The translations under genes and the position numbers were made by a program. This document shows positions 10,279-38,330 of a stretch of 64,000 nt of DNA, piece by piece. Position 1 is the first letter of the stretch, and every line of letters starts with the position of its first letter. Source of the DNA: a virus; the IMG/VR virus record IMGVR_UViG_3300045988_175328, positions 64,001 to 128,000 of that record. One strand, written 5' to 3'. The notes under the pieces are model-generated. The model searched no databases, was not told the origin of the DNA, and saw only the letters and a program-made list of their open reading frames with translations.

Positions 10279-10551
10279 AAAAGAGGGATCGCCGGCACTA
10301 TTGTATTCACACTATTTGATCGTGATGCATTAGTCGACGCATTGGCTATTCGCGCAGCAAAAGCTGCGTATTTCCAACGTATTGGTGGTGATATCAATTA
10401 CCAACCATACACAATTACTGAATGGGATACTAAATTGACAGATATGGTAGTTAATACTTTATCTTCCAGTAACAGTTCCCAAATTGCATCCAGTAATCCA
10501 TTTAAACTTACTCAAAAAGTAGCTGTTCAATCTACTCCTAAATACTCCGAT
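10279..10551 (+). CDS. tail tube-like protein, exon 3 of 4
   Basis: KRGIAGTIVFTLFDRDALVDAL...STPKYSD aligns to PRTIAGTIVFTVLDKHVIYEIF...HYLMD of the 11429 paralog. The 5' boundary comes from guide complementarity and the paralog alignment. The 3' boundary is U10551, wobble-paired with G10565. Confidence 0.65.
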
Positions 10552-19800: not shown

Positions 19801-22800
19801 TATGATCCAATTCGATCTGGTCGATATTGGGTATGGGGTTCTACAAATGAATTCAGAGGTTCTTCTGTTTCATATTGGGAGCCGAATAGCTTAAGACTTG
19901 CGACATCTGATTACAAGATGAAGTCTATATATGGTAGCTATTGGAATAAATATTTACATTCACCAATACCAACATTAACAAATCCATTGTCACCATTATT
20001 CTATTTAGCTAATCCATATTGGGTTGAAGAGCAACATTCTGAAGATAGACCATATTTAAAATCAGGCCCGTTATTTGAAAAGAACTCTTTGCAAGGCGCA
20101 TTGTTTAATTGGAATATTGGAGAATTAATTAAACCTGAACGAAGCTACCATGATGACAGAATGTGGTTCGGTCGAGACGTATATGCTGTCATGTATAATA
20201 TGCGACAACAAGAAATGGAAAAACGTGACGATAATCGATACATCATTTTCCAAAATGGTCGCTTAGGCATATATGATTTTAATTCATTCCAAAATCCAAA
20301 CATGCAAGAGTCTATTAATAATGAAGATGCTGAAGAGTATAGAGAGCAAGCTTCTCCTGTATTCACAAGCGCAGCTGATTATTCAAATGCATTAAGTTCT
20401 GATGGTTCATTAGATACTGATGAATATCAATCATTAGCTAGTGGATCTACTTCTGGCGCAGGTGGTTTTGGTATTCGAAGTGCAATTACTTCTATGAATA
20501 AAAGTGTCGCAGGCGAATATATTCAACAACGAATCAGAAGAAATAATAGCACAAAAACTGTTCATGAATTATTAGAGAATGCTGGATATTATAATGATAT
20601 AATGAACTCTAATGCAGACTCTATTGTAAATCAATCTATTAATGCTGTTCGTGCAGTATCTGGTATTTATGGATATGCTGGTGTTAAATTCTTCGGAGAA
20701 AATGAAAAGACAAGAATAGCTGATGCTGGAGACATTACTTCATTCGCAAGATCTTTCTGGGATATGGGATTTGGCGGATTAGGCTCCGAAGGGGCCGAAA
20801 TTGCCCGTCGTTTCATTCCTGAGTTTTCAAGACGTCATAGAATTAATCCATTAATGAATGAGCTTGCTGAAAAACATCCTTGGCTACCTGAAAAATTCTT
20901 CCGAGGAGATCCATATGCAAGTATGCCTATGGGAGAGGCAAGGCTGCCAGGTACCGGATATGAAGCTTTAAATCAGTTACATCCTGATCAGTTTGGACAA
21001 TATGGTGTTATTGATCGATATAAGATCTTAGCAGATATTGCGCCTAATTCTGAAGAATATAAATATTATAAGACCTTAATTAAGATGCTTGAGGATCCAG
21101 AGGCTAAGAAAATATATAATGATACCGAAGAGAGAATTAAGCATCAAAATAAAAGATACGATTTCTTCAATTATAAGTTTTTAGGCAAAACGACTAAAGG
21201 TGAAGAAGTCGGTATTGAAAGTATTCAAAGCAATGGTAAATTTACTATTGTTGGTGACGATAAGTTATATCAAATAGCCGGCGTTAAATTTAATACTCAA
21301 GGCGAAGAATCTAAAAAAATTCTTCAAGAAATATTAAATGAAGGCTCTAAGGTAATGATGTATACCGATGATATAGAAATATCTGAAAATAATAAAGTAA
21401 ATGCTCCAATAAAAGCAGCATTATTTTTAGATGGTCAAAATATCTCGGAGATGCTTATCGACCACGGACTTGCTCAGTACGATAGAGAAGATTCTTCAGC
21501 TGCTGGAGCAAAGGCTAATTATAATCCACTTTCAAGAGCACTAGGTACTGGATTTGAGTTCTTAACACATTTAAATATACCTATTATTCATTCTCAATTT
21601 TTAAGAATCAACTCTTCTTTAGAGTCTTACGAACAGAATCAAATATATGGTTCTGGATTTGAATCTTGGGATCATCCTATTGATAGTATGATTATGCCTT
21701 CGGTCTACCAAGGAAAAACTGGTTTATTCCTTGATTTCTTAGGAGAATCAGCTTATCGTTATCATAATGCTATTGAAGATGGATTTATTTCTGCATCAAA
21801 AACTGGCCGAAGATTTGCTAAGCATGCATATCGATATTTAGATAGACCAACATTGATTGGGCATATTTTTAGTAGGTTTGCATACTCTGGAGAAAATCGA
21901 GAGCATTATGCGAATGCAACAACTGCATTAACCAGATATGCCGGTAATGCATTTTCATTGTATACTTCTTTACAAGATCCATTTTATGCTGCTTTTGCGT
22001 GGGGAAGATTTGGATATGATACGTCAGCATTCTTCAATCCATTTGAAAAATTAATTGTTGGTACAAATGAAGATTGGGAAAATAAAATTTTCTCTTATCA
22101 AAAATTGTCTGATCAGTTCTTTAGAGATTACGACGAGACATTAAGAACTTCTATTGCATTTACAGAAGCAAGACCTATTGTTAATACATTAACAGATGAT
22201 TTATATCGTGGAGCATATGAATTAAGTTCTGATATTAATACTCCTGGTTTAATAAAAAATACTTTAGATACTCTTCTTCACACAAGACCCTCAAGAATAG
22301 TTACAGGTTTGGCTTCTGCAGGTATTGGTGTTGCTTTATCTATTGCAAATTACAATTCAGTAACAGAAACGTTTGGTCAAGATTCTATATTTATCCCTGA
22401 TCATGTTAAAGAACGATGGGATGTCGAAGAATATTTTGATCGGTTAAGATATATTAAATATATGTCATTATATGCTCAAGCTGCAAAAATAGCTATTAAT
22501 GAAGAAGATACAGATGTAGCTGCTTTATATCGACATCAAGATTATGTCCGCGAACATGAAAGTGACGATATATCATTATCTAATATGATCGCATCTGTTC
22601 TTGTTTCTGGTTCTCCGATTGAGGATGGCATATCTCAATTCAAACGATTTATGTTCGGGACAATGAATGAAGATATGACAGTTTTATCGGCTGATAAATT
22701 TACAGAACTTGCTATTATGTATAAGCAAGCTGCCGAGAATACTATTTATGGATTAACAGAAGATTCTGAATATTCAGATATCATTAGAGCATTACCAGAT

Positions 22801-23310
22801 TATGAAAAGGAATTTTTCGAAGATTTCTCTGGAGTTCTTGATGAAGAAGAGCGAGATAAAATACTTAGAGAAGTTTCTCCTTCTTTAAAAAAAGCATTAA
22901 AGCTTGTTTGGTATGGAGAGCTTGAAGATCAAATGCCAAATGAATTATATTTCTCGACTCATAATTTGCCATCTGTATTCTGGGAGGGTTGGCAAGCCGA
23001 TAAAGATATGTCAGATATTAGAGCTAAAGTTATTTACAACGAAGGTCTTAGCTATGCAGATTATGGCATTTTTGCATCTAAATATGAAGAACCAAATGTT
23101 CAAGACGCTCCAAATATTGATGACATAAAAGATTCTGACGACCCAATTACCGTAAAGGCTAAACTAGGTATTTTAATGAAAGGATACAATTTATCTTCTG
23201 ATGATGTCGACGTCTATAAGACATCTGATCCAAGTACCCTTTCAGTCATTCAAGATACAGTTTCTGTATTAGGATATAAGATAGAAACTGCATTAAGCAA
23301 AGTTTTTTAA
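16882..23310 (+). CDS. giant virion-module protein (2142 aa), function unknown; N-terminal hydrophobic helix and an internal degenerate SNase/OB-like segment
   Basis: Uninterrupted ORF. NVAVVGGIATAAFSLY lies near the N-terminus. The segment FTIVGDDKLYQIAGVKFNTQGEE...KAALFLDGQNISEMLIDHGLAQ resembles the thermonuclease fold pattern but lacks clear catalytic motifs. Confidence 0.6.
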   Translation: MADLLEKQSMEDMFFENALENVAVVGGIATAAFSLYKSDFGKQLIGHIDPLFGRISERLSYMNRHGDNPFTFEELGVGFKMAKSNYIGEGFDPLTRSASLDNKEAMNLIHEIAQNHDYYSFSRNAGQAMYYNYFEESMLNQMDSMGFGLSEKGREALSVTFKDNAHTFIDFDKGLLKTEGEAALSNLANGNLPRYLSEADSKALRGYIDSTINQDIPVAFNPFANFVSQDEIQNTLMSMHKDYKEQWKSQIDVLISKAEEETKTSNYHYITLGEYENFGRGLESDDNQIRINVKRNGGEQNLTLNEIATDSIFDAYNLKDLPISKSRFVKDSATPGANNPDDIIDHSFTKRMLDGVKSFAKSTLPYKLAGIEGFQSSSPRGIESITKEAFQPYIQKTLGKTDYVRIGQSLYQKDSTTGGYKKVELEGGSWYKGNATNIESQSIAMGYADPKSAERTNWKSRGESPHRRHTTLHGNNIDILRNADLSKMTNEDLSYRIFSLKNHLDIVDHDIDTQTFRKMVNGVLDQFGDQLSPEHNHYLTGLVNLLSTGSPEELRTGLNGISSILPRNSSSIIKPTKEFNNLLERTKKGEYLGTKIVEDAIGVTEKGNERIKGPLEKTQSLIKEEIINSILQGNISLGPQYSGRVTDPDSFRALLHHLTFNINDGFNIGKGDAEKISRLASTVFIKNFDQLPEIISEGSALKLAGGPRALAEKVQKLLNGSPTLNESLAYSMGTGVDRKVLFESTKVKQDYVYQKNTTPFQKLADLSPDKIADYILGGGLFDTAKSIFAGSTFDLSKSAKYLKHVNLEEIAPDFKTGNSLSEMNSVGAYAYRIANRINDQLNETSLSTFFGVINENFSDWASKYINLRVPLGLHRADATTTLGITKNLMLKRLLPASILLSQAEWADDTFDINENFQTGLANMDLGFRRIVDGLGMTNFMKRHKMLNPLAEYISGDYTLFQSYNERLDYYQNGYDPIRSGRYWVWGSTNEFRGSSVSYWEPNSLRLATSDYKMKSIYGSYWNKYLHSPIPTLTNPLSPLFYLANPYWVEEQHSEDRPYLKSGPLFEKNSLQGALFNWNIGELIKPERSYHDDRMWFGRDVYAVMYNMRQQEMEKRDDNRYIIFQNGRLGIYDFNSFQNPNMQESINNEDAEEYREQASPVFTSAADYSNALSSDGSLDTDEYQSLASGSTSGAGGFGIRSAITSMNKSVAGEYIQQRIRRNNSTKTVHELLENAGYYNDIMNSNADSIVNQSINAVRAVSGIYGYAGVKFFGENEKTRIADAGDITSFARSFWDMGFGGLGSEGAEIARRFIPEFSRRHRINPLMNELAEKHPWLPEKFFRGDPYASMPMGEARLPGTGYEALNQLHPDQFGQYGVIDRYKILADIAPNSEEYKYYKTLIKMLEDPEAKKIYNDTEERIKHQNKRYDFFNYKFLGKTTKGEEVGIESIQSNGKFTIVGDDKLYQIAGVKFNTQGEESKKILQEILNEGSKVMMYTDDIEISENNKVNAPIKAALFLDGQNISEMLIDHGLAQYDREDSSAAGAKANYNPLSRALGTGFEFLTHLNIPIIHSQFLRINSSLESYEQNQIYGSGFESWDHPIDSMIMPSVYQGKTGLFLDFLGESAYRYHNAIEDGFISASKTGRRFAKHAYRYLDRPTLIGHIFSRFAYSGENREHYANATTALTRYAGNAFSLYTSLQDPFYAAFAWGRFGYDTSAFFNPFEKLIVGTNEDWENKIFSYQKLSDQFFRDYDETLRTSIAFTEARPIVNTLTDDLYRGAYELSSDINTPGLIKNTLDTLLHTRPSRIVTGLASAGIGVALSIANYNSVTETFGQDSIFIPDHVKERWDVEEYFDRLRYIKYMSLYAQAAKIAINEEDTDVAALYRHQDYVREHESDDISLSNMIASVLVSGSPIEDGISQFKRFMFGTMNEDMTVLSADKFTELAIMYKQAAENTIYGLTEDSEYSDIIRALPDYEKEFFEDFSGVLDEEERDKILREVSPSLKKALKLVWYGELEDQMPNELYFSTHNLPSVFWEGWQADKDMSDIRAKVIYNEGLSYADYGIFASKYEEPNVQDAPNIDDIKDSDDPITVKAKLGILMKGYNLSSDDVDVYKTSDPSTLSVIQDTVSVLGYKIETALSKVF

Positions 23311-23322
23311 AGGAAATAATTA

Positions 23323-26300
23323 ATGGCGACAAGCAATATTATCCTTAGAGGGAGAAATAATCATTTTGATCCATCAGGTATTTTTAGACAAGACTACAAG
23401 CTTTATCTTAGTTACGTAAAAACAATTCATAACTATATTGAAGAGAATAATAATGCAACTGGATTAACAGGTAGGCCTACAGAGTTTTTAGACCATAAAG
23501 GCAATCATGTAAAAATTAATGATGTTAATGAAACTATTAATATCTACGATCATAGACTTTCTGGAACAAATGACGCAAAATTAGTTAAAAGCATGTTTCA
23601 GAATAATCTATTCGAAAGAATGGCGACTGAGAATACTACTGTATATGATATTGAAACTCTCGTTCCTTTAGTTGGAAAAACAGGTGAATTATTCCAAGAT
23701 TCAATTTACCAATATTCGTCTCAGAATATAATCGACGGCGAAGTTGTTGCCGGAAAAAATTATTATCTTGGGTTAAATCAAAAGCAAGTAGAATTTTTAA
23801 AAAAATATTATCAGAATTTTGATGCGAATTTAACTAAAGATAAAGCTGCTTTATCTTCATATAAAAGTATAATACGTGCAGGTCTATATAAAGACGATCT
23901 TCTTGCTGGGAAAGCTCTTGGCGCAATTCCAACAGAGCTTCTTAACCCAATTGGCAAAAACCAAATTAAAGAATCTAAAGAAGCTTTTATAAAAGGGTTA
24001 AATGCTCTTTATGAGTTACATAATCAAAATCAAAAATTAAGTGGGGAAATTACTCTTTTAGATGGTTCAAAGAAAACTGTTCAGGGGAATACATATATAC
24101 TTCATCAAATTTTTGATGACCTTTTGTCTAATAATTTAAGAACTGCATATAATGGCTACAATTTTGATGAAAGAAAAATGTATGAGATTGCTCATCTTAA
24201 TGGAGATTCTGCATTAATTCAAAAAGCAGAAAAGTTGATGGCCACACAAAGCCAACGATTCTTTGATATTCAACCTGCTATCAGGTTGTTTAAAGAATTG
24301 GGATTAGGATCTGAGTTTAAAGCGTTAGGTATCGATAATCCATATGCGAAAGAAGGTCCGAATGGATCTATTTTACCTACAGCTAGAAATACACAATTAG
24401 GAACGATGGTCAATTATCTTCCTGAGCATGTAAGAAAAAGCCTTGGCCTAATGAATGCCGATGCATTCCATGATGCAACTGTCGATACATTTGCATATGC
24501 CAATGTGTTAAATTATAATTCTAAACGGTTCTCTGATATGGTTAGAACATTGCATGACCAAATTCAGAATCAAGAAAATACAATGATTCCCAATAGACAA
24601 GTATCATTCTCTAGCAATGCATCACTCGATTCTTATCATTTGATGAGAGTTAATCGTTCGATGTACAATGATAATATGCCTATGATGATCGTAAATGCTA
24701 ATGAAGAAAACTCTCTTCATGTACAAAAATTAGGACATACATTTAAATTTAATACAGCCAATCCAGATAAGCCAGGATATTTTGCAACAAATGAATCATT
24801 AGCAGGTATCTTACGAAAAGGTATGAATATTGCTATCGGCGAAAATGTAAGAAGTTTTAATGTAGATGATACGATTAAAGAGCAATTCTATAATGCAACT
24901 GGTCATATGCTTGCTGAAGATGAACTTGTGATGGTTCCTTTTAAAATCCATGATACAAAAGGATTTTATGGTAATCAATATATCGTTTTGCCGAAAGGTC
25001 AAATGTCTGAAGTCTTGCAAAGAATGGGTACATTTTTTGGAGGTGCTCAACTTGATGACTCTGGAAAAATTGTTCAAACATCAAATGTAACAAGAGATGG
25101 TGTTAATTCAATGTTTGAGCAAATAGGATCTCTTAAAAAGTATCAGACTGGCACTGCTCAACAAGCTGTAGAAAATTATCTTAAAGACAGCACTAAGTAT
25201 CAATTGAATAATTATCTTTTCCAACAATTAGATAAAACTGATATCAATAGAGCTAAAATTATGAAGGATCTTGCTAGAATAAAAGATGACAAAGTACGGA
25301 AACTTTATCTTCAAATATCGCAAGAAATGATCAATAACAATATCGATAAAGATCAAGCTTTAGAATCTATTGCTAGAATTAATGGTGTTACAAGTAAAGA
25401 TCCTTTGTATTTAAAAGCTCATAGTTTTATCGGTACTCTTCAAGAGCAACAAAATATTTATTTTTCTGGTAATCGTGCAGCTAATTCTGGCACACCATTG
25501 TTTAGATCAGCTGCTTGGTCTACGCATGAGTTATTAGAACGAACAGATAATAAACTTATCGATACATTCGCTTCTACTTTCTTAGACGTTGCTGCTAAGC
25601 ATGGATATCAAAATTCAAAAGGAGAATTTTTCTTTAACAGCGATTCTAATGTAATTGCTGGAAAATTAGTAAATGTTCTTTTTCAAGAAATGAGAAGAAA
25701 TAATCAGACATTAAAGACTTCTATTTTAAGTCTTTCTCCCGATGAATTAAAAAAATTCTTTTACGATAAAATTACTCCACAAAATGGGTTAGACCTTAAT
25801 GCAAGAAACACAGAAGAAACAGCATCAAAAATTCTTTCTTTTGCGACACGAGCAGCTAAGGGCTCTCGTGGATCAGATAATATTCCAGCGAATCAAATAA
25901 AAAATGTTTTATACGATATCGCTAAGTTCATGAAAAACAATAAGATTATCGATTCTAATAAAGATAACTTATTATATAATATGAAAGATATTGTCGATAA
26001 TCGTTTAGATACGCCTGAGTTAATATCTGAATATATTGCAAAAGATTTAGCAAGTTCTTTTGAAAGACAATATTCTAAGGGTAAATTACCTGATTGGTAT
26101 AATAGTACTTTTGTAAATTATCGTGGTGGTAAAGTAACTCTGGGCGAGAATACTCTTGGGAACTTTAGAAGAATGGCCTCCAAAATAACTGGCGATTTCG
26201 TATATAATCCAAAAGATTCTAGAAAAATATTAAAAGATTTCATGATGTCTGACGCGATAAAAGATCAATTAGCTAGATACTATGATGATAAAGAGCTAGG

Positions 26301-29300
26301 TCATTTTATTGCGAATTCTGCGAATGAAACAATCACTAATTTAGCAGATACTATTATCGATAACTTAGATTTAGCTAATATGACAATTCATTCTTCTCAT
26401 GGTGTAGTCCTTGAGGATTCAGTTGGCCGAAAATTTAATTTAACTAATTCTATCCCAATGGTTGTTTTTGAAGAAGGCGTTCCCTATATAAAAGTTGGCG
26501 GAAATACTTATAGCATTAGTTTGGCAACTCGATATTTAGAATCTCGTGATTTTGAAGGCAAGAAAACTTCTGGATATATTTCACTTGGTGTTGAACAGCT
26601 TGAGCCATATAATGAAATAGCTGCTAGGATATCTAAAACAAAAGTTAATAAATTTGGTTCACTTTCTGCTGTTCAATTAGGATTAAATTCTGTTACTAGA
26701 GAGATATATGAGAATACAACTTTTAACAGTCCTAATAATAGAAAATCTAATGCCGGAAGTTATAATTTTGTAGCAAAGAGTGCTAGATCTTCTGGGTCAA
26801 TGTATACAACTACGAATATAGGATTTAAGCCTATTCTAAAAGATCTTGTTCCTGTGTTTAATGATCTTATTGACAATAAAGTTGTAAGTGAATCTTTCAT
26901 TACGGATCATCTTATTAACTCTACAGGATCTACTGATTCTGCAGAAGCGCTCGAAAAACTTGGATTTGTACCTAAAGATCCAAATATGAGAGGAGCATCT
27001 GGTACCAATTATCTTGAAATGATCTTTAACAAAGATCAGTCTCAATATCCTGCAAATCAAAGAGCTATTCAAGAATTTTTCTCTAAACCTTTTGAAAATC
27101 CTGTACTACTTTCTAATGGAAAACAAGCAAATAATTTTGGAGAATTAATTCTTTTAAATTCTTCGGCTACAGGAGCTCATCGTTATACTATAGATGCCAA
27201 TAAAGATCCTATTTTCATTATAGAAAAACAGCAAGTTGATGTTCCCTATAGTTCTTTAGCTAAAGGATTTTATAGTACTGAAGCAAGAAAATCTTCTTTT
27301 GGTCAAATCTCTTTTACTTTATCTGCATCTAATTCAAATAAACAAGTTGGTCCAGGTTCAGATGTTGCATCTAGTCGTTATATCCAGAATCATTTACAAC
27401 AAATGTCAACGATAATGCCTGAGTATATTGATCAAATTAGCGACTTAACTGGTCTTGATTACGGAAGTTTAAAAGATCAGCCAACATTAAGAAGATTTGA
27501 TGACAGATCTGTAGAACATTCAGTAAATGCTAATATGCTGATTTCTTCTCACTATGAAGACATTTCTACATTAGAAAAAGAGATTAGTAGCTCTACAGAT
27601 ACAGTGTTAGAAAAATATGATTTAATGTCTGGCAAAAGTCTCAGCTTCTACAATGATGCGCCTGATAATTTAAAAAATAAAATTCATGGACATCTTAGAA
27701 ATGTAGCAGAAGGATCTGCATCTGTTGCTCAAGAACTTGCTGATATTCACCATATGACAGAAACGTCTGCTGGTGTACAAATGATTAAATTAAATGAGAC
27801 TAGCATTAATGATAAATATATAAAAAATATAATGCCGGTTTTCTTTAATCATGAAACAGGCCAGTACGAAGCATTAGAAGAAGCGAAGCTTGCATATTTT
27901 AAGGATCTTAACGTTATTGCAAAAAGAGATTCTAGAAGTAATAGCGATATTTTCTATGATAAATCTAAAGGCGATGCTTTTGGCAAGGTAGTCTTTAAAG
28001 ATAGCAATACAGGCAAACTTTTAACTCCTAAAGAAATTGCAGAAATATTAAATAAATCTTTAAATGAAAAAGTAGGCGTCGTAGATTTTGACGACATTAC
28101 TCATATATTTAAAGAATTGATTCATCAAAATATATACAGCTACTTTAATGCTAAATCTGTCGGAAGTCAAACAACAATGAAACTTGTAGCCGATAGTACA
28201 AAACATGTTGCTTCCACAATGGGCATGGGCATCGGAACTGTTTTCAATGGTGTTGCCGATATTTTTGAAAGAAATAACTTTGGTCATTATGTTGGCGAAC
28301 TCATGGATTTTGATGCTATGAAACTTCTTCTTCATGGCGATATTGACGTAGCTACTAAAGTATTCGCTTCAGAAGCAGTTAAAAACGGTCGATTCGTTCC
28401 GAGAAGATTTTCTGGAAAACGTCTTTATAAAGTATTAGAAGACGTAAAAATAAAAAATGCTTTAAGTACTAATGCCAAAGGGTTTAAAAATTATGTCGAT
28501 AAAGCATTACCGAATTTTTTAATCGATATTAAAGACAAAAATGGAAATGTAACGCATCAAGAAAAATTAGTCGACTTAAAAGCAAACGCTAGAAAAAATA
28601 TGAGAAAGCGGATGTTCGGCAATGAAAATATTGGTAAAGACTTAAAGTATCTAGATGATTTTGTTAAATACCAAAAAGTCCAAGACTATATGGCAATGGA
28701 GCAAAGTCTTACGCATCAGTTAAGAGCTATTAATGTTTTAAAGACTAACATAAATGACGGCATATCATTCATGAATCGGAATAACGATATCTACAAAGAA
28801 ATCGGATCCATGAATTTAAAAGATGTAAAAGATCTTGCTTCTAAAATACGAACTGATGTTAATTTGCAACAAACACATCCTCACATGTATGAGTTCTTGC
28901 GGAAACATTCAGTTCAAGATCTTGAAAATCTTTTCCATTCATTTAAGAATATAGAACAATTAAATGCTCAAAACCCATTGCTATATAATATATTAAAGAA
29001 TAGTCCAGAAGATTTAGATAAATATATTGGCAATATTAAAGGTGTCATGTATGGCTTTGAAAAAGCGACAGCAGGGACACCTAGAATTGGGAATATCGCT
29101 CAAACTTCTAACTTAGTTAATTCAGCAACAGATTTAAATGAGATGAAAGAAGTTGGTGTTAGAATCAGCAAATTCTTTGATCGCATCAAAAAAGCTGTTT
29201 CTAATCCTCAAGGGAAAAATCAAAAAGCTGGTGAATTAGATAGATTCTTCTTTGGTGAATTAAAAGTAAAAGATTCTGACGGAAAATTTAAAACTTTTTT

Positions 29301-32300
29301 TGAACGAGAAGAGCATAATATCCTCAATTATGATTTTTACAATTCTGATGAAATGCGGCAAATGGTCTCAGTTCAAGATAAAGAGCTTAGAGCAATGAAA
29401 CGAATGTTCTCTGAATTTCAAAAGTCCAAAGGAAAAGACATTCCTATCTCTGTCAATAAAAATGATATTGACGACTATTTAATGCAAATCGATTACCTTC
29501 ATGGAATATTGCCATATTATAATGTTGGAACTGTTCGAGAACTTTTTGCCGATGGAGCATTAGAAGATATTGTAAGAGGCAACATTTTAGCTCTTCGTAG
29601 ATCTCTTTCGCATTTATCTGGAAAGGCTAATTTGTCGGCCGAACAATTGCTTTTCCGAGAAAGATATATAGTAACAGAAATATTGAATCAACATTATTTC
29701 GATATCAATGGAGAAAAAGGCTTAGTAATGGGTATTTCTAATTCTCCAGAAGATATAAAAAGGGCAGAACCAATTACTTTAATTCGAAGAATGATCGATA
29801 ATACAATGCATCATGCTTCTGGCTCTCAAGAGATAAAAGCTAAATTTAATGGTGACCAACAAAAGATAAGAGAGGCTATCGTTGATTATTTAAATCAATC
29901 TGATTGGTTTAATATAGAACAGAATGCTGGCCATAAAATATTTGAAATAGATCCTTCAGATCCAACTAAAGTAAAAATTGAAGGTAAACATCTTAGAATT
30001 ACAACAAAAACATTAGGAGAGTATAAAGCTGATGGTGGATCATTAAATGTGATTCATCATGTAACTGGTGACGATGAATTAATTAATCCTATCGCTACAA
30101 TGTTCCAAGAATTAAATGAAAAAGTTTTTGGATATAGTCTTGGCCGTGAGATAAAGAAAAAAAGATCTGGTAATGTTCATGCTGTAGTGTCCGATTCCGA
30201 GTCAATGCATGAAATGAATTATCTTCTTTCCAATATAATTGGAACGCATCAGCAAACTCAATTTTTCCCATATGCTCATTCTCATGGCTCCAAGTCTGTT
30301 ATTGGTGCGGTTAGCGGAAGCGAACAAGATTCTCTAATGGCTATGTCACTAAATGAAAAAGCATTAGAGACTATCCATAAGGCATTGCCAAATGATCAAA
30401 AAGTAAGAGAAGCTTATCTTGAAATGATCAAATTACAAAACGAAAAAAGAACAAAAATAAAAGAAGATTTACTTGCTGCGAATCAAGGCATGACAGAAGC
30501 ACAAGCTCAAAAAGAAGCCGATAAATTTGGACTTGCTTTTCATCCATTTAATTCTTTCAAAAATGCAGTCGAAGATCCAGAAGTTCGTATGAAGCTTTTT
30601 GGTCAAGAAGAAATGAAAGCTGGAACATCTGTAAGAATGATTAAATTCGGCACACAGGATATAACTAAATCTGATAATTACAAGAAATTAGATGAAGTTT
30701 CTCAAAAAATAGCACATGATCTTCATTATAAAAATAATAGATTCTCAAAAGAATGGCTTCATTTAAAACGAGATGCTATTTCTTCTATGGCCGCAATTGT
30801 TTACGAAGAAGATAAAGGCGCTCATAGTGTTGCCCAAAAAAGTGCTCCCATTACTCTTTTCAAGGAACTAATGAGGAATCCAGACAGCCCAGAAGCTATA
30901 GCTTATGCGCAGTTCTCAAGAGATTCTAGAGATATCTCTGAGAAGATAAGTCATGGACACGATGTCGATACTGGACAAAGATACCATTTAAATATAGATG
31001 GAGAACGTGTATATATTAATGTCCCAAGCTATAAAGCAAACGATGAAACTGACAATTTGTTTACTCAAATTGAAACAAATTATCGTCGATATAATGAAAG
31101 TATCGAAGAGATGCAAAATGCTACTGACTCTTATGAAAAAGCTGAATTTGCAAGGAATGCTTCGCAAAATGCAGAGATATTAAGAAACTCCATAGAGAAA
31201 CTTAATCAAAATACGAAAAACGATGCTTATAAAAAAGGGAAAATAAGACAAACCAATTTCTACGAAATGGGTATTCGTCGTTCTGGTGAAGCAGAATATC
31301 TAGCAATGGACGCATTCGATACTAAGAATAAAATTTTCTCAAGAGGAAAAGATGCAAAAGGCAACGAGATCGTTAAAACAGTTCAAGATGTTATCGATGA
31401 AGGATACACTCCAGCTATAGCAGAAGTTAGCGAACAGTTCTTTGAAGATGTTGGTATTTTAGATAAAAGAATGTCTAAAGCTGATCGAGCTGCAAAATTA
31501 GCGAAATTAGAAGAAGAAGGTACAGTAATGGCCATAAGCCGTTATCCTTATAACTATCAGAAGTCTATTAGTTTTGCTAAAGTATATTTAAACAAAGATA
31601 TGTCCGATAAACATATTCGCTCTAATCATTTCTTACAAGTAAAAATGAATGCCGATAACGATGGTGACTTATTATATGCAACTAATTTAGCCCAAGGCAA
31701 TTTAAAGAAAGCCTTTAAAGGGATGTCTGAAGATGCTTTAGCATATGCTACAGCTGCCGACAACTCTATCGGATATCTTCAAACTACTTTGTATAATGAC
31801 AAGGGCGAGCTTCTTGATAGCCTAAAAAATGATGCGTTTGAAGCGAATATCATGACTCATTATAAAAAAATGATGAAGGATATTTCGACCGACGAATTTG
31901 GCGAATTGAAATCTACAGCGCAATTGACACAGAACGCAGGTGCGCCATATCATTCAATTAAGAATTTAAATAACTTACTTGTTAGTTCTGAAATTGTAGA
32001 AGATTCATTAAATCGTTCTAAATTTGAAAACCATTTCTCTGGCCTTAACAATATTGTTTTATCTGATTCTACACAAAATCAAGATAATGTTTTAAAAATC
32101 TCTGATCGTCGATTAATGAACTTGTTTTCTATCGGCGCTGTCGAATCTGGTTTGTCGGCAAAAAACTTTAATGATCAATATGTTCCTATTCAGTTATCTG
32201 AAGGAATTCGTAATGCTATGACTAGCGGAAGTCAAATCTCTGACAGAATGACTGCGCTTTCAAATCTACTTGATCAAAAAGCGATTAATCCTAATGGCGG

Positions 32301-33186
32301 CGAAGCAAGTCAAACAAACTGGGACTTTATTTTTGATTCTTTATTTAAAAAAGAACCAGATTTAAAAGTATTAATTGATGCGACAACAGAAGCAGAACAT
32401 TCTTTAATCAAAAGTGGACAAAAGACATACGACGATTATGCTCAATATGGAGTTGATGTAACAAATATTATTGACGACGCAGAAAAAGAAGCTCATTTTA
32501 GAAAGCAGATGAATGCTGCGTATAAAGCAAAATTAAGTCAAGATTTGAAACAGTCTACTGTCGATATGTTCTCTCGTGTCGGAGATAGATTTTCACATGT
32601 TGACACAAGAGCATATGATTTATCCATACAACAGCATAATGATATTGCTGATTATATGGTTCTCGGCATTGGCCAAAACAATGGATTAGATTATAATTAT
32701 TTTAATGTTACTAATTCATCTGGCGCTATGAACCAAAATAATATCGATGTAACACGAATCACAGAAGGAATTCTATCTGGAACACAAGGCGAGATTGTCG
32801 GTAAGGATATACTTACAGAAATTGCTTCTAAGAGATCAAAAGGATTACTTGGTATGGCAATGGGCGCAGGCGCTTCTATTCTTCTTGCTGGAATGGGAAC
32901 ACAAAATCCAATTCCTCAAATTGATAATTCTGTAACAGCTCCTATGGACGATAATGTAATGGTTCGAGAAGTTCAGGCTCCAAGTTATGGCGATAATTCT
33001 GGATATTTAATTAATGTTCGTACATCTAATACAGATGGAGGAGCAACTGCGGCAGCATTAATGAATATGGGTTCATTAGCTCTTGGAGGAAATCGCCAAA
33101 ATATAACAGTTACAACAAGAGTTAATCAACAATATACAGACATGCCTATAACTGAAGCTATGAGTTACTTGTCTAATATGTTCTAA
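23323..33186 (+). CDS. giant protein (3287 aa): N-terminal DEDDh-like exonuclease motifs plus C-terminal two-barrel RNA-polymerase-like motifs (candidate virion RNAP)
   Basis: Exo I VYDIETL (nt 23647), Exo II YNGYNFDERKM (nt 24151), Exo III FHDATVDTFAYANV (nt 24469). Beta-like YAHSHGSKSVIGAVSG (nt ~30271-30318) resembles GRHGNKGV(I/V)S. Beta-prime-like ISRYPYNYQKSISFAKV...MNADNDGDLLYA (NADNDGD at nt 31648-31668) resembles NRxPTLHRxGIQAF...NADFDGD. Confidence 0.6.
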   Translation: MATSNIILRGRNNHFDPSGIFRQDYKLYLSYVKTIHNYIEENNNATGLTGRPTEFLDHKGNHVKINDVNETINIYDHRLSGTNDAKLVKSMFQNNLFERMATENTTVYDIETLVPLVGKTGELFQDSIYQYSSQNIIDGEVVAGKNYYLGLNQKQVEFLKKYYQNFDANLTKDKAALSSYKSIIRAGLYKDDLLAGKALGAIPTELLNPIGKNQIKESKEAFIKGLNALYELHNQNQKLSGEITLLDGSKKTVQGNTYILHQIFDDLLSNNLRTAYNGYNFDERKMYEIAHLNGDSALIQKAEKLMATQSQRFFDIQPAIRLFKELGLGSEFKALGIDNPYAKEGPNGSILPTARNTQLGTMVNYLPEHVRKSLGLMNADAFHDATVDTFAYANVLNYNSKRFSDMVRTLHDQIQNQENTMIPNRQVSFSSNASLDSYHLMRVNRSMYNDNMPMMIVNANEENSLHVQKLGHTFKFNTANPDKPGYFATNESLAGILRKGMNIAIGENVRSFNVDDTIKEQFYNATGHMLAEDELVMVPFKIHDTKGFYGNQYIVLPKGQMSEVLQRMGTFFGGAQLDDSGKIVQTSNVTRDGVNSMFEQIGSLKKYQTGTAQQAVENYLKDSTKYQLNNYLFQQLDKTDINRAKIMKDLARIKDDKVRKLYLQISQEMINNNIDKDQALESIARINGVTSKDPLYLKAHSFIGTLQEQQNIYFSGNRAANSGTPLFRSAAWSTHELLERTDNKLIDTFASTFLDVAAKHGYQNSKGEFFFNSDSNVIAGKLVNVLFQEMRRNNQTLKTSILSLSPDELKKFFYDKITPQNGLDLNARNTEETASKILSFATRAAKGSRGSDNIPANQIKNVLYDIAKFMKNNKIIDSNKDNLLYNMKDIVDNRLDTPELISEYIAKDLASSFERQYSKGKLPDWYNSTFVNYRGGKVTLGENTLGNFRRMASKITGDFVYNPKDSRKILKDFMMSDAIKDQLARYYDDKELGHFIANSANETITNLADTIIDNLDLANMTIHSSHGVVLEDSVGRKFNLTNSIPMVVFEEGVPYIKVGGNTYSISLATRYLESRDFEGKKTSGYISLGVEQLEPYNEIAARISKTKVNKFGSLSAVQLGLNSVTREIYENTTFNSPNNRKSNAGSYNFVAKSARSSGSMYTTTNIGFKPILKDLVPVFNDLIDNKVVSESFITDHLINSTGSTDSAEALEKLGFVPKDPNMRGASGTNYLEMIFNKDQSQYPANQRAIQEFFSKPFENPVLLSNGKQANNFGELILLNSSATGAHRYTIDANKDPIFIIEKQQVDVPYSSLAKGFYSTEARKSSFGQISFTLSASNSNKQVGPGSDVASSRYIQNHLQQMSTIMPEYIDQISDLTGLDYGSLKDQPTLRRFDDRSVEHSVNANMLISSHYEDISTLEKEISSSTDTVLEKYDLMSGKSLSFYNDAPDNLKNKIHGHLRNVAEGSASVAQELADIHHMTETSAGVQMIKLNETSINDKYIKNIMPVFFNHETGQYEALEEAKLAYFKDLNVIAKRDSRSNSDIFYDKSKGDAFGKVVFKDSNTGKLLTPKEIAEILNKSLNEKVGVVDFDDITHIFKELIHQNIYSYFNAKSVGSQTTMKLVADSTKHVASTMGMGIGTVFNGVADIFERNNFGHYVGELMDFDAMKLLLHGDIDVATKVFASEAVKNGRFVPRRFSGKRLYKVLEDVKIKNALSTNAKGFKNYVDKALPNFLIDIKDKNGNVTHQEKLVDLKANARKNMRKRMFGNENIGKDLKYLDDFVKYQKVQDYMAMEQSLTHQLRAINVLKTNINDGISFMNRNNDIYKEIGSMNLKDVKDLASKIRTDVNLQQTHPHMYEFLRKHSVQDLENLFHSFKNIEQLNAQNPLLYNILKNSPEDLDKYIGNIKGVMYGFEKATAGTPRIGNIAQTSNLVNSATDLNEMKEVGVRISKFFDRIKKAVSNPQGKNQKAGELDRFFFGELKVKDSDGKFKTFFEREEHNILNYDFYNSDEMRQMVSVQDKELRAMKRMFSEFQKSKGKDIPISVNKNDIDDYLMQIDYLHGILPYYNVGTVRELFADGALEDIVRGNILALRRSLSHLSGKANLSAEQLLFRERYIVTEILNQHYFDINGEKGLVMGISNSPEDIKRAEPITLIRRMIDNTMHHASGSQEIKAKFNGDQQKIREAIVDYLNQSDWFNIEQNAGHKIFEIDPSDPTKVKIEGKHLRITTKTLGEYKADGGSLNVIHHVTGDDELINPIATMFQELNEKVFGYSLGREIKKKRSGNVHAVVSDSESMHEMNYLLSNIIGTHQQTQFFPYAHSHGSKSVIGAVSGSEQDSLMAMSLNEKALETIHKALPNDQKVREAYLEMIKLQNEKRTKIKEDLLAANQGMTEAQAQKEADKFGLAFHPFNSFKNAVEDPEVRMKLFGQEEMKAGTSVRMIKFGTQDITKSDNYKKLDEVSQKIAHDLHYKNNRFSKEWLHLKRDAISSMAAIVYEEDKGAHSVAQKSAPITLFKELMRNPDSPEAIAYAQFSRDSRDISEKISHGHDVDTGQRYHLNIDGERVYINVPSYKANDETDNLFTQIETNYRRYNESIEEMQNATDSYEKAEFARNASQNAEILRNSIEKLNQNTKNDAYKKGKIRQTNFYEMGIRRSGEAEYLAMDAFDTKNKIFSRGKDAKGNEIVKTVQDVIDEGYTPAIAEVSEQFFEDVGILDKRMSKADRAAKLAKLEEEGTVMAISRYPYNYQKSISFAKVYLNKDMSDKHIRSNHFLQVKMNADNDGDLLYATNLAQGNLKKAFKGMSEDALAYATAADNSIGYLQTTLYNDKGELLDSLKNDAFEANIMTHYKKMMKDISTDEFGELKSTAQLTQNAGAPYHSIKNLNNLLVSSEIVEDSLNRSKFENHFSGLNNIVLSDSTQNQDNVLKISDRRLMNLFSIGAVESGLSAKNFNDQYVPIQLSEGIRNAMTSGSQISDRMTALSNLLDQKAINPNGGEASQTNWDFIFDSLFKKEPDLKVLIDATTEAEHSLIKSGQKTYDDYAQYGVDVTNIIDDAEKEAHFRKQMNAAYKAKLSQDLKQSTVDMFSRVGDRFSHVDTRAYDLSIQQHNDIADYMVLGIGQNNGLDYNYFNVTNSSGAMNQNNIDVTRITEGILSGTQGEIVGKDILTEIASKRSKGLLGMAMGAGASILLAGMGTQNPIPQIDNSVTAPMDDNVMVREVQAPSYGDNSGYLINVRTSNTDGGATAAALMNMGSLALGGNRQNITVTTRVNQQYTDMPITEAMSYLSNMF

Positions 33187-33284: not shown

Positions 33285-36200
33285 ATGGCAGAAGATAATA
33301 ACAATAATGATGCATATAGAAGGCATCATATATCTACAAGTGGGCCACAAGGGTCTGTAAAACCTGATTTAGAAAAACTTAATAATCAGCGGCATCATAT
33401 TGTAGAAAAAACTCCTTCTCTGAAAATTAAAACAGATAATCCATACAAAAGACATCATGTTCCAGAACCTCTTCCTGGAGAAATAGAGAACAATCCATTT
33501 GAAGAAGCTTTTCATAAAAGACATCACAATCTAGAAGAAGCAAGAAAAGATAATTATAATAGACGTAATCATTTAGGTGCTTATTCAGAGAGAAACGAAA
33601 TGAGCACTTCAGATAATAATGAAGTAAATAGTGAAACTTCTGCAACTGAAAAAGAGAAGAAATCTTCTGAAGACGCATTTACTAGACATCATGTAAAAAA
33701 AGATGATACTGTTTATGGTACTAACTCTTCAACCAATACTGCTTCAAATCAAAGTATTGATTCCAAAGGCGACAAAAAAGAAGATAAGAAAAAAGACAAA
33801 AAACCTTTCTGGGAAACTTATAAAAGAGTTGGTGAACGTGGAGGATGGGATGGTTCTGACGAGCAATTTAAAAAAATTGTTGACGAATCTAAAATAGGAT
33901 TGCCACAAATTGAAGATTTTTTAAAAAATCAGATTTTAGATCCAGCTATTTATGATCAAAGTTTAACAGTCGATAATCCTGATGATGCGACCTTCTACAC
34001 AGAAAACCCTCCGGAGAAAGATGGCTTTGATTCTTCTAAGTCTATTTTAACAATGACTGTGAATAAGGATGCATTCTATTATAGCGGCAGTCCTTCTACT
34101 CAAGGACTTGATGATCCAATTTTTACTGGCGCAGTCGATGGCGATACCATCAAATTTGACTTCAAAAAAACTGGTGTTAAGGATCCTCAAATTATTGAAT
34201 ATATAGATTTATCTCGCAAAAAGATGATCAGTTTTTTTGCTGACAAATTTAAAACAAGCAATGAAAAAATCGAATCAATGTTTGATAGTATCAATGAAGA
34301 TGCCATGGGTATTCGTTTCTTATTTTTTGACGCGCCTGAAGTTTTGCATATAAAATATGAAAAAGTAGAAGAATTTAAGGAAATGACATTTCAAGAAGCG
34401 TCTACATATAAGGCAATCATGTGTAAATATACATGTAAAGATCCTGGCACATTTGAAAAATGGGAACCATTAGATGCAAATGAAAAGTATTGGTTTGCCT
34501 ATAAGAATAGAAGATACTATCAAGTTTGCGATTGGTACCAAGATTATGCTCAAAAAAATAGTAATAAACAACCGTCATATTCTAATGGATCTTCTGCATA
34601 TCTTATTAAACAAAATGATACAGATATATTAAGTATTGCTGACGGATATTTAGGATCACGTCTTGTAAGTACAATGTTTCAAAAAGCAACAGCGGCTAAA
34701 TTAGTGGTTGATTTAAACTTTTCCGAAAAACAAGATACTATGTCAGGCTATCCACGAAGAGCTGATTATAGTTCATTTGATAATGAGCTAGTTCGTAATT
34801 TTATCAATGGACTATATCTTGGTATCGAAGGAAAGCAAGATACTATATTTGAAGAAGCAGGCGTCAATGCTTATGGTATGGAACATTACCGCCGCTTACT
34901 TTCTATTATTTATTTAAAAGTTGATGGCAAATGGATTAATCTTAATAAGTATGTAATTTCTAAATTAAAATATGCGTCTCTTTTAAAATATAGTGGTAGT
35001 GCAAATCCTTCTTTAAAAGCTTACTCTTATGAGCACGATACAAAAGTATGGGCAGATAGAGTTTGGAAATCTATTGAGAAATTTGACAATCGTCATGAGG
35101 TTCAACGAAAAGCATTTGGTCGTGGAGATATTTCTGAAAGTTTGAAATCTATTAGAGATTGGACTTTAACATTAGGTGATGTAACATTATTTGTTCCTCC
35201 TGTTTCTATTAAAACAGTGTCTCAATCTAATTATCCAAAATCCCCAATCTTACGATCTAAAGGTTCTGCGGTATTTAATTCATATACCGAAGATAAGATG
35301 CTTCAGATCGAATGTTTCTTTAATGAAGATAGAGGAATTAATGGTGCCCCTGTTACATTAAAAACAAATAAAAGTAACAAGGCCAAAGAAGTTACTTATC
35401 ATATTAATGGTGTTCGTTCTTTATTGTCTCAATTCCAATTTGCTCCCTATATCCCAATCGAGAATAAATATGTGAATGAAGTGCTTGGAATGGATGCTGT
35501 TATTTTTGATAGTTTCTCTATTGAGACTGTAGCTAATTATCCTAAATTGCTTCATGTTACATTATTATTGCGCGAGTTTAATCATCACGCTTTCATGCCG
35601 CAAGTTCCAAATGCAAGATTACTAAGCGATTTAGAAGTAGATTATCGAAATTTCTTCGCCAAAACAATTAATTATGATTTATTTCGTTGGTATTATCAAC
35701 AACCATTACTTCTTGGGAACAAATTAAAAGACGAGAAACTTCCAGTATATTCAAAAGAGTTTATGAAACAAACTCTATTCGCTAATAAATCTGCTTATTT
35801 CCCAGTCGATACATTAGATCCGACTATATCTATTTTTGCTCCTAATGAAAGCAAAATTAATCTTTTAGAAAAATCTAGAAATCGATATAATCGACAAAAT
35901 AAAAAGAATCCAGTACTATATACTCCATCTGATGCTGATAAGAAATTATTTGAAAAGCTAGATGGATTATGGCGAAATATTTTGTCGTATCAATATGATG
36001 AAACTTTAACAGTTGATAATTATGAAACATTTGCTCAGAAATTTACTTCATATCTTGATGGCAAAGGTTATCTTACTTTCAATGATGGCATTCAGTATAA
36101 TGATCATCCTTACTCAAATCAACTTTCTGAAAAGATGCCATTTGGACCTGTTGGCGAAAAAGGCGAACGAATTCCATTTTTGCAAATAAGAGTTCGATTG

Positions 36201-38330
36201 GATACTGAAAATTCTAGTGATGTTTATGATCTTTTAAGACAACAATTCGCAGCCAACTTTGTTGCGGCAAAATCTCCAGCCGAATCTGGTGGACGAGGAC
36301 AGTCTACTGGTACAAGTAGTCCTAACTGGTTCGTTAAATATGATTCCATCTTTGCTAACAATGAAATAGAATTACAATTTAAATTTAATGATCCTAGCAT
36401 ATTATATGCTGGAAACTATGGATATCAATTCTTAGAATATTGTGCATCTCAATATGTCGATCAAAAAAATATTGATGAAAACTATAAAGGCTTAAGTGGT
36501 AATGAAGAATTAGCTAAAAATGTTCATGACTCACAATTTGAAACATTAGATTCTTTAACATATGAAACATATTTAACAAATGTTTTAGTTCAAGGATTTA
36601 CAGCTAATTTTACAAATTCTTTTGCCGAAATTTCTCTTAACAGCATGAGCGGTGGTGTTTCTCCTCAATATATGGGCGGGCAAAATGCCAATATAACTTT
36701 TAGCATTATGACATACGACAAGGAAACTGTTGACAAACTTGATAAGATTCCTCGCATCGTAAAATACTTACGTCAGCGTTATCCTAATGCATTGCCACTA
36801 TATCCATTTAGAATTGATTCAGAATTCACAAAATTACTTGGTATATTTGAAGTGATTGTAACATCTGTAAGAACATCTACTGTGCCTAATTATCCTGGGT
36901 TAATTAAAGTTGATGTCGTTATGGAATCTGTTGACCGAACAATTCGTAATCGAGAAGTTATTAAAAAATTCTATGAAGGAACACTTAATAGAACAATAGA
37001 TGCTCCTGAAAATGTTACTGATACATTGCCTTTGTCTTATTTTGATCTTGAAGATAATTTATCAAGAGCGGAGTTATATCCTGATTTGCAATTACCGACA
37101 ATATATGAACTTGGAGAATTAGGATTTGAATTTGTTCGGTATAAAAATCCTGGAGGGCAAATTTATGTAGATCCTGATTTTTATTTCGTATATCAATATC
37201 CATTGTTCTCAGATCTTTTAAAACGATTAATTGTAATTGAATCAAAAAAAATATTTGAAGATGAAAATGGAAGTATAAAAGATGGTGCTGATCCATTCTT
37301 TGATTTCTCATTTTTAACTGCTGATCAAGTTAATACCATATCAAGTGGTGGGCAACCTATATTATCAGAGTCTACAAATTATCCTAATCGAGATGATTTC
37401 AAAGAATTAAAAGAAGCTGAAGAAACGATCCAGAATAAGATAATTCCTAATGAGAAAAAAGAACAAACATTAACTGCTAAAGTAGATGGATATAGTCATT
37501 GGAATATTTCTAAAATGATTAAAGCTTCTTTTCAAGAACCATATTATACTTGGTTGTATCATTCTAATAAAGATAAATCTGCAGGTACTGATACAGAACT
37601 TGTTACTGTTATTGATGAATATAAAAAAGCTGCACTGGAAGCCATTACTTATCTTCAAGAGAATCCGATTACAAATAATAGTGATATTGAAGATATTTTA
37701 AAATTAATAGTAACTATTACTGATCGCGATGCTAATAAAGGAACAAGTAATGGTAATGAGTCTAAAACAAAATCTATTGAAAAAATAAATACAACTACTA
37801 AATCAGATATCGAAAAAGCATCTGGAGACAATAATGATCCAGACGCTTCTGTTGATTTAACATATCGGCAATCTAAAGATGAAAATGGCGACTGGAAAAA
37901 AGGTGAAGTTAATACTGGATCAGGAACTAATTATGGAGTAAAAGACCTTAACCATCAATTTATCCGTCGCTTATTAAATGCAGTTCTTCTTGCTAATGTA
38001 AACGAAGAGTATTCTTCAGCGAAAAAAGAAGATTTTAAAAAGAAATTTCCAACGAACCAAACTGAAATTGATGACGCAATTAATGTTAAATATAAAGAAC
38101 TAGTAGAAAAATATACCGATAATGAAATTCTCTATAGAAAGCAAAACAATCTTCTATTAAAAGGGAATAATCGTACTGAATCATTATATTCTTCTTCAGG
38201 AGTGAGCTTGCTCCCTGATGATATTCAAGAACAAATCAATAAAGAAGCTTATGCTGCTGCATATGGTGAAATATATAAAAAATGGAAGCCTACAACATAT
38301 GGAGATTCTGGCGTAACATATTATAGTTAT
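33285..38330 (+). CDS. giant tail protein, predicted exon 1 (1682 codons): RHH repeat region plus a staphylococcal-nuclease (SNase) domain
   Basis: ATG after GAGGAAA. SNase motifs AVDGDTIKF (nt 34133-34156), GIRFLFFDAPEV and GMEHYRRLLSIIYLKVDGKWINLNKYV. The TAA at 38331-38333 is predicted to be intronic (see the intron at 38331). Confidence 0.65.

Follow-up and report, generated by a model that had tools for sequence, protein, structure and literature searches.

A giant tail-module protein of an uncultivated jumbo myovirus with a 3'-5' exonuclease domain and a beta'-type RNA polymerase barrel signature

The stretch of DNA analysed here (64,000 nucleotides, hereafter the window) covers positions 64,001 to 128,000 of the IMG/VR virus record IMGVR_UViG_3300045988_175328, and its source is an uncultivated jumbo myovirus of ~227 kb that is a distant relative of Bacillus phage 0305phi8-36. 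Within the window lies a gene for a giant protein of 3287 amino acids (aa) which joins in one chain an N-terminal exonuclease of the DEDD class and the signature of the beta'-type catalytic barrel of two-barrel RNA polymerases, and which occupies the tape-measure slot of a tail module. Since both signatures are genuine and the gene stands in the tail module, a virion-delivered RNA polymerase is a reasonable reading. By analogy with gp96 of Thermus phage P23-45, we lean towards a tail-delivered protein in tape-measure position that would combine an active exonuclease with the catalytic core of a two-barrel RNA polymerase.

If active, the protein would place its lineage beside just one other, in the literature covered, that has a cellular-type two-barrel RNA polymerase within a protein at the tape-measure position. 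No earlier case would come from a contractile-tailed jumbo phage, and none would have a 3'-5' exonuclease in its chain. Tail delivery of transcription enzymes would then be a recurrent solution and not a peculiarity of P23-45. The finding also provides a testable function for a family of proteins of 1800-3300 residues, encoded in IMG/VR phage genomes of ~215-236 kb and unannotated in all libraries searched.

The gene and its homologues

The gene was delimited from the list of open reading frames (ORFs) and its translation. Coordinates here and below are those of the window.

23323..33186, + strand: whole gene, encoding a giant protein of 3287 aa at the tape-measure slot within the tail module

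The ORF is uninterrupted over its 3287 codons, begins with ATG and has a purine-rich AGGA stretch 5' of the start. A first-pass annotation of the window had read the same ORF and a series of motifs in it, each of which is found at its residues: DIE (aa 109-111), YNFD (aa 279-282), HDATVD (aa 383-388), HSHGSKSVIG (aa 2319-2328), SRYPYNYQKSISFAKV (aa 2739-2754) and NADNDGD (aa 2776-2782).

An identical protein was found on the 227-kb metagenomic contig k141_26322 of ENA ERZ27276323, and a collection of 5.8 billion proteins yielded four close homologues, which are 98, 82, 75 and 49% identical to it; contigs of 222-225 kb carry three of the four. An exhaustive hidden Markov model (HMM) search with aa 2050-3150 against 1.84 billion representatives added just two more proteins: P0006, of 493 aa, and P0005, of 2582 aa (E=2e-17). 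The matches of the two run through the stretch around the DxDGD loop. With P0005 as the lead, ~50 more clusters were recovered, including P0056 (64% identity to P0005) and P0057 (27%), most of them on contigs of ~210-234 kb, and a repeat search with alignment A3 returned nothing additional. Close homologues number four and distant cluster representatives about 55, and wherever their contigs are long enough, these all measure up to ~235 kb. IMG/VR contributed 17 loci, including one with a 1781-aa variant (L021). Among 50,697 phage records, neither the gene nor two of its segments found a match by megablast and tblastn, a 192-aa fragment returning noise only, and a full-length profile of eight sequences found no relevant match in the PDB.

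Conservation was read from an alignment of eight sequences (A4) whose clades stand at about 20% identity. Its 155 invariant columns are concentrated in the N-terminal exonuclease region, in aa 1001-1100, 1401-1700, 2101-2200 and 2701-2800, and in the C-terminal ~190 residues (aa 3101-3287).

The exonuclease domain

The following features were assigned to the protein's N-terminal part.

23575..24567, + strand: predicted 3'-5' exonuclease domain, aa 85-415, with an RNase-H-like fold and helical insertions, YprB/PolB-exonuclease-like, motif III of the DEDDh type
23647..23658, + strand: Exo I, D109-I-E111-T, invariant in 8/8 sequences of A4 and on the first beta-strand of the model
24151..24168, + strand: Exo II, N277-G-Y-N-F281-D282, with N277, G278, F281 and D282 invariant in A4
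24469..24486, + strand: Exo III, H383-D-A-T-V-D388, with H383, A385 and D388 invariant in A4, placed where the last long helix of the model begins

On the evidence of its motifs and of a predicted structure, we regard aa 85-415 as a real DEDD exonuclease with a third motif of the His type (H-x4-D). Exo I (D-x-E), Exo II (N-x3-F-D) and Exo III (H-x4-D) occur in that order and are kept in all eight sequences at ~20% identity. By itself the motif triple is weak, because a loose version of it appears in 675 of 20000 shuffles of the protein. An AlphaFold2 model of the segment, built from an 11-row alignment, reached a mean predicted local distance difference test (pLDDT) score of 86 and a predicted template modelling (pTM) score of 0.85. 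In this model Exo I lies on strand 1 of a three-stranded sheet and Exo II at the start of a helix (helix B) that follows strand 4, and the arrangement of the motifs is DnaQ-like, with helical insertions between them.

A Foldseek search of the model against BFVD gave one strong match, a fragment from a metagenomic virus described as 'YprB ribonuclease H-like domain-containing protein' (E=5e-8, template modelling score 0.56), behind which weak exonuclease matches were ranked. Against PDB folds no match was significant; PARN came top at E=0.17 and oligoribonuclease was in the top ten. The Pfam family RNase_H_2 (PF13482) matches three of the six aligned family members (best E=4.7e-6), P0005 scoring 22.1 bits at a cut-off of 22, and the window sequence itself lies below the threshold. 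The best PDB sequence match of the region, Pfu PolB at Exo II, was not significant (E=1.2); Exo II resembles the PolB exonuclease motif 'YNGxxFD'.

The N-terminal DEDD exonuclease proposed in the first-pass annotation is therefore borne out by its invariant motifs, by a confident RNase-H-like model, by the BFVD match and by PF13482 in the homologues, and of the fold searches that this annotation had called for, the one against BFVD was positive and the one against the PDB was not. The domain shares Exo I (DIET), Exo II (YNGxxFD), Exo III (H-x4-D) and RNase-H-like topology with the YprB/PolB-exonuclease-like RNase_H_2 proteins and with DnaQ-like DEDDh exonucleases, and it differs from them in the large size of the insertions between the motifs and in being part of a tail protein of 3287 aa.

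The beta'-type catalytic barrel

The second module was located towards the C-terminal end.

31216..31722, + strand: beta'-like catalytic double-psi barrel region, aa 2632-2800, from PDB profile matches, beginning with the switch-2-like stretch KNDAYKKGKIRQTNFYEMGIRRSG
31540..31548, + strand: R2740-Y-P2742, with the invariant Arg and Pro known from the beta' barrel, unchanged throughout A4 and A7, including L021 and P0006
31648..31668, + strand: N-A-D2778-N-D2780-G-D2782, putative metal-binding loop, its three Asp invariant in all clades

Sequence comparison supports a genuine beta'-type catalytic double-psi beta-barrel (DPBB) signature at aa ~2632-2800, which is also the most conserved internal region of the protein. 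In A4 the invariant residues of the barrel are R2740, P2742, D2778, D2780, G2781 and D2782, with R2740 lying 38 residues before D2778. The catalytic loop reads NADNDGD, KADHDGD, KLDYDGD, NADHDGD or KADADED among the clades, and R2740, P2742, D2778, D2780 and D2782 are invariant over five clades. Ruprich-Robert and Thuriaux (PMC2919709) listed eight residues that are invariant in all two-barrel polymerases, five of which belong to the beta'-type barrel (DPBB-A), where the invariant R-x-P sits about 35-45 residues before the Asp triad. All five are kept invariant in the family of the 3287-aa protein. The chance expectation of NADxDGD is 3.9e-4 per protein of the same composition, and an R.P followed by DxDGD 28-48 aa further on occurred in 32 of 20000 shuffles.

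Eight sequences that represent five clades were aligned over aa 2628-2830 (A7), and the resulting profile was run against every PDB sequence. Its top three matches were the beta' N-terminal subunit of the AR9 non-virion RNA polymerase in two constructs (7S01_d and 7S00_d, E=0.0017-0.0019) and phiKZ gp55 (7OGP_A, E=0.08, non-significant), so that by sequence the barrel is closest to the beta' subunits of jumbo-phage multisubunit polymerases. The AR9 and phiKZ alignments run from just before R-x-P, through DxDGD, to ~20 residues past it. The polymerase-like similarity is confined to these ~75 residues, an example of how such polymerases evade detection, and it was through the barrel region only that the exhaustive HMM search reached the remote homologues. 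The beta' signature that the first-pass annotation had seen in NADNDGD holds up in both respects, namely the invariance of R-x-P...DxDGD and the match to AR9 (E=0.0017).

Comparison with the cellular enzymes gave fainter signals. The best hhalign match to E. coli RpoC falls exactly at NADFDGD and is weak (P=0.04), and when the protein was aligned to E. coli RpoC and RpoB by Smith-Waterman, shuffled controls showed the scores to be non-significant (z about 2). In the closest clade, KKGKIRQTNFYEMGIRRSG stands just upstream of the barrel motifs; by eye it resembles the switch-2 segment of E. coli beta'.

In the 493-aa homologue P0006, which begins ~80 residues before its R-Y-P...KADADED barrel, Glu replaces the Gly of DxDGD. 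Such a short protein may reflect a truncated gene call, or else the family may include a split-subunit form.

The second, lysine-bearing barrel

Two regions were considered for the partner barrel of the beta type.

27685..28242, + strand: candidate beta-like (DPBB-B) region, aa ~1455-1640, with invariant E1463-G-S, K1549, G1554, K1611, K1620 and K1627 in A4
30277..30306, + strand: HSHGSKSVIG, the beta motif of the first-pass annotation, which has no invariant column in A4 and varies even in P0004

Signatures of both barrels had been claimed at the first pass, and of these the beta' one stands (invariant residues, AR9 profile match) and the beta one, placed at aa 2319, is not supported, since HSHGSKSVIG is unconserved outside the closest clade. 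It is probably not a barrel motif. With no residue invariant in A4 and with SSFGSKTVTG already in its place in the 49%-identical P0004, its likeness to the beta motif is most likely a chance resemblance.

A partner lysine-bearing barrel is probably present in the same chain at about aa 1455-1640, as we infer from the conserved residues of that region. The counterparts of K1611 and K1620 are spaced by 8 in the P0005 and P0057 clades, the same spacing as that of K979 and K987 in Rpb2, where DPBB-B gives two basic residues and one acidic (PMC2919709); K1611, K1620 and E1463 are the candidates for these three roles. In the shorter relatives some 950 aa separate the E-G-S motif from the catalytic loop. 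The E-G-S at E1463 can be set beside the 'EDS' of beta/Rpb2, and aa ~1455-1640 are beta-rich in a low-confidence model (pLDDT 47).

The alternative is a split enzyme, in which this chain would hold only the beta'-type barrel and another polypeptide the lysine-bearing one, as in AR9 and phiKZ, the active form being a complex of the two. Such an arrangement agrees with the fact that the only sequence matches are to beta' N-terminal subunits of split jumbo-phage polymerases and that neither profile nor fold detected a beta-type barrel in the chain, and P0006, though it may be a truncated gene call, starts just before the barrel. It agrees less well with the invariant E-G-S and K-x8/9-K cluster in the beta-rich, conserved aa 1455-1640, with neighbouring genes whose products are homologues of structural proteins from phages that lack the polymerase motif, and with the 64-kb window, in which no beta-like gene was seen. 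We consider a split enzyme unlikely, while keeping some room for it.

Genomic context

The 64-kb window is wholly a tail and baseplate module, in which the genes run in the order sheath, tube, chaperone-like ORFs, gp145 homologue, 3287-aa gene and gp147 hub homologue. The immediate neighbours of the gene are as follows.

16882..23310, + strand: upstream neighbour, a 2142-aa homologue of the 0305phi8-36 virion protein gp145 (BLASTP: gp145, E=2.5e-44; Moorella CDS0026, E=1.4e-48)
33285..44747, + strand: downstream neighbour, the baseplate hub/lysin gene (gp147 homologue), here in two ORFs (BLASTP and tblastn to gp147 and Moorella CDS0032)

The placing of the gene in a tail module at the first pass is confirmed by the sheath gene upstream, the hub gene downstream and the flanking homologues of gp145 and gp147. 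The block of three genes (gp145 homologue, gene of the 3287-aa type, gp147 homologue) recurs in 17/17 IMG/VR loci. The sheath gene matches the sheaths of Moorella phage MTATph1 and Bacillus phage 0305phi8-36. A crAss-like identity of the phage was considered and rejected in view of this tail sheath and of relatives that are 0305phi8-36-like myoviruses.

Flanked as it is by the gp145 and gp147 homologues, the 3287-aa gene fills the slot of gp146, which is a virion protein by mass spectrometry in 0305phi8-36 according to the record annotation. In that phage gp146 was assigned as the tape measure from the tail length, and the polymerase is the product of a separate, non-structural YonO-like gene, orf99 (PMC2147016). 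The occupants of the slot in the two relatives, gp146 (L001:22624-30237; 2537 aa) and Moorella MTATph1 CDS0027 (L002:20513-24442; 1309 aa), share DEDD exonuclease signatures with the 3287-aa protein, on which their record annotations are silent: in gp146 a DEDD-type motif triple starts from YLDIETTGL (aa 1223), and CDS0027 matches Pfam RNase_T at E=5e-5.

Other features of the protein

Four further features were mapped on the protein.

28690..29622, + strand: clade-specific insertion, aa ~1790-2100, from the A4 coordinate map
31936..32166, + strand: two motifs shared across the family, A-G-x-x-Y-x-x-x-K (aa 2872-2880) and E-x-x-L-S-x-K-N (aa 2941-2948), both after the catalytic loop, from invariant columns and alignment A11
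32833..32910, + strand: glycine-rich hydrophobic segment, aa 3171-3196, from a hydropathy scan, strongly conserved
32911..33183, + strand: C-terminal ~90 aa, the most conserved part of the whole protein, with 28 invariant columns in the last 87 residues

The insertion of ~300 aa is specific to the clade of 3200-3290-aa proteins and absent from the relatives of 2540-2586 aa. It evolves very fast, with 9% identity over aa 1801-1900 to P0004, the homologue that is 49% identical overall. The glycine-rich segment is a possible membrane-inserting element, judging from its hydropathy, and the C-terminal ~90 aa may form a module that anchors the protein to the tail or hub. A likeness of the C-terminus to that of 0305phi8-36 gp146 was noted by eye only and is not significant. 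The protein contains no cysteine, and tryptophan makes up just 0.2% of its residues.

Weighing of the tail-delivered polymerase and its alternatives

A number of results weigh against a tail-delivered two-barrel polymerase. As regards location, the presence of the 3287-aa protein in the virion is deduced from the position of its gene only, and the tape-measure position, from the tube and chaperone genes to the hub, is also held by the 2142-aa upstream gene. As regards similarity, neither the whole 3287-aa protein nor a profile of its close homologues matched anything in Pfam, PHROGs or PDB sequences. The same two proteins of the gp146 slot, gp146 and Moorella CDS0027, gave no significant score with a family HMM or with HMMs for the exonuclease region and the C-terminus, and they have no significant sequence similarity to the 3287-aa protein. 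Both also lack any DxDxD, so that the polymerase module is not general in the gp146 slot.

As regards the polymerase fold, PDB profile searches of aa 960-1452, 1452-1690 and 2783-2990 matched no polymerase, and in the last of these segments, after the catalytic loop, neither a bridge helix nor a trigger loop was identified. The AlphaFold2 model of the polymerase region, for which aa 1430-1785 and 2105-2940 were spliced and the clade-specific insertion removed so as to stay below 1200 aa, is too poor to use (pLDDT 46.9, pTM 0.27), and a Foldseek search with it found nothing meaningful. With a poor model and no profile matches the second barrel is undemonstrated, and structure prediction did not deliver the two facing barrels that the first-pass annotation had named as a check. 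The chains of gp96, gp66 and QDE-1 are not among the PDB matches of A7 at E<=10, assuming that the PDB copy has their structures, and an hhalign comparison of the C-terminal 1100 aa with gp66 from phi14:2, a crAss-like phage, gave no similarity (probability 0.1). The parallel that had been drawn with the crAss-like virion polymerase accordingly finds no counterpart in sequence.

Standing where 0305phi8-36 has its putative tape measure, the gene also invites a purely structural explanation, in which the protein is a tape measure or ejection protein that sets tail length or forms a DNA conduit, and the enzyme-like domains are relics kept for folding or assembly. A length of 3287 aa would translate into ~490 nm at ~0.15 nm per residue (a rule of thumb), which is plausible for a long tail; the hydrophobic segment and conserved C-terminus are tape-measure-like, and over most of its length no enzyme fold can be recognised in the protein. 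No significant similarity was found between the 3287-aa protein and either gp146 or the known tape-measure families of Pfam and PHROG. Against relic domains, all catalytic residues of both domains are invariant across clades at ~20% identity while the flanking sequence has diverged, which argues for selection on catalysis, and P23-45 offers a precedent for tape-measure and polymerase functions in one protein. We therefore find relic domains improbable.

The two modules are separable. Locus L021 (IMGVR_UViG_3300045974_000102) encodes a 1781-aa polymerase-motif protein in which the loop is present and the exonuclease domain is not, and gp146 and Moorella CDS0027 carry exonuclease signatures only. 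The exonuclease is hence not an obligatory partner of the polymerase, and, since the 0305phi8-36 and Moorella proteins keep its signature without the polymerase loop, the distribution suggests a greater age for injected nucleases in the gp146 slot.

This separability bears on another possibility, namely that the two-barrel module synthesises DNA, or primers, and the exonuclease proofreads. PolB-like exonuclease motifs and a two-barrel catalytic loop do occur here in one chain, and archaeal PolD is an example of a two-barrel fold that makes DNA and works with a proofreading nuclease, keeping two of the three Asp (PMC4996933). Against the analogy, the 3287-aa protein keeps all three Asp as well as R-x-P, its best matches are to RNA polymerase beta' and not to PolD, its exonuclease lies ~2300 residues from the catalytic loop and is missing in L021, and in gp146 and CDS0027 exonuclease signatures are found without DxDxD. 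A PolD-like enzyme is, in our assessment, hardly credible.

Proposed mechanism

On the preferred reading of a tail-delivered polymerase, and following the model of P23-45 gp96, the protein would assemble inside the tail lumen and be expelled from it either before the DNA or along with it. Its polymerase module would then transcribe the first phage genes without the host enzyme, and its exonuclease would act on nucleic-acid 3' ends at entry. The targets of the latter might be the phage DNA ends, in end or template processing, or else host or defence nucleic acids under attack. Two C-terminal elements, the glycine-rich hydrophobic segment and the highly conserved last ~90 aa, would serve to fix the protein in the host envelope as well as in the tail or hub.

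A more demanding version would have the exonuclease and the two-barrel polymerase cooperate within the one injected chain, either by trimming or proofreading the 3' ends of nascent transcripts, or by resecting the phage DNA ends to make a single-stranded template or promoter. We regard such cooperation as doubtful. If true, transcript proofreading by a DEDD domain would be a first for a two-barrel polymerase, and the phage would possess a self-contained machine for genome opening and transcription that is delivered through a contractile tail.

Comparison with known systems

The closest precedent, which had gone uncited at the first pass, is P23-45 gp96, a tape measure protein of 5002 residues with a virion two-barrel RNA polymerase as its N-terminal ~1200 residues (bioRxiv 10.1101/2022.12.01.518664; PMC10770324). 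This polymerase was found by scanning virion proteins for DxDxD and transcribes the pre-early genes, and with it a virion two-barrel polymerase fused to a tape measure is experimentally established (bioRxiv 10.1101/2022.12.01.518664). Both gp96 and the 3287-aa protein are giants encoded in the tape-measure slot of a tail module, and both have a conserved DxDGD loop, scarcely any other similarity to known polymerases and a membrane-type segment. The proposed delivery of gp96 through the tail for transcription of the first genes is the best functional model for the 3287-aa protein. The two differ in that the polymerase is N-terminal in gp96 and the catalytic barrel here lies at aa ~2630-2800 of 3287, in that P23-45 is a Thermus siphovirus and the present phage a contractile-tailed jumbo phage, and in that gp96 has a metallopeptidase domain and, in its published description, no exonuclease.

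The beta' chain of AR9 (7S00/7S01 chain d) and phiKZ gp55 (7OGP chain A), both from jumbo phages, are the sole solved structures that match the A7 profile, the AR9 match being the significant one. Unlike the 3287-aa protein, the AR9 and phiKZ polymerases are assembled from separate subunits, four or five in number, whose genes lie outside the tail module, and no subunit is fused to an exonuclease or to a tail-anchoring sequence. Both barrels stand in one chain in phi14:2 gp66, in YonO of SPbeta and in gp99 of 0305phi8-36, and gp66 is in addition packaged in the virion and encoded beside giant structural genes. The virion RNA polymerase of N4-like phages is likewise a giant protein ejected for early transcription, with a T7-like right-hand fold and packaged in the capsid. 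Its likeness to the 3287-aa protein is a functional analogy only, its fold not being of the two-barrel type.

In the literature covered, P23-45 gp96 was the only tape-measure-linked polymerase, and no account of an exonuclease fused to such a polymerase was found; the library was limited and the latter is not a firm negative. The combination of exonuclease and polymerase thus appears to be undescribed, as had been surmised at the first pass.

Other observations in the window and related loci

In locus L021, the giant protein encoded upstream of the polymerase-motif gene (L021:338-6790) matches the restriction-endonuclease-like Pfam family REase_MTES_1575 at E=3e-22 and is a weak homologue of the 2142-aa protein of the window. 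Nuclease domains seem to move between giant tail proteins.

The sheath protein of the window (2891-5926) is unusually long at 1011 aa, and just its C-terminal ~260 residues are sheath-like (phrog_16991; 0305phi8-36 gp139).

The hub gene comprises ORFs of 1682 aa (33285-38333) and 1897 aa (39054-44747), separated by a 720-bp gap, in which a group I intron (Rfam RF00028, 72.4 bits) was detected at 38349-38720 on the + strand. Most related loci have a single ORF of ~3180-3196 aa instead (aligned: L005 and L010), so that in the window a self-splicing intron appears to interrupt the gene of the baseplate hub. The tail-tube region has a further pair of group I introns at 7684-8025 and 10542-10883 (82.6 and 73.9 bits), again on the + strand. 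They flank an IS200/605-type 'transposase' ORF (8165-9253; phrog_506, E=8e-128) and an endonuclease ORF (9605-10264; phrog_4645), and a tube gene or tube paralogue may be split here by introns that carry mobile ORFs.

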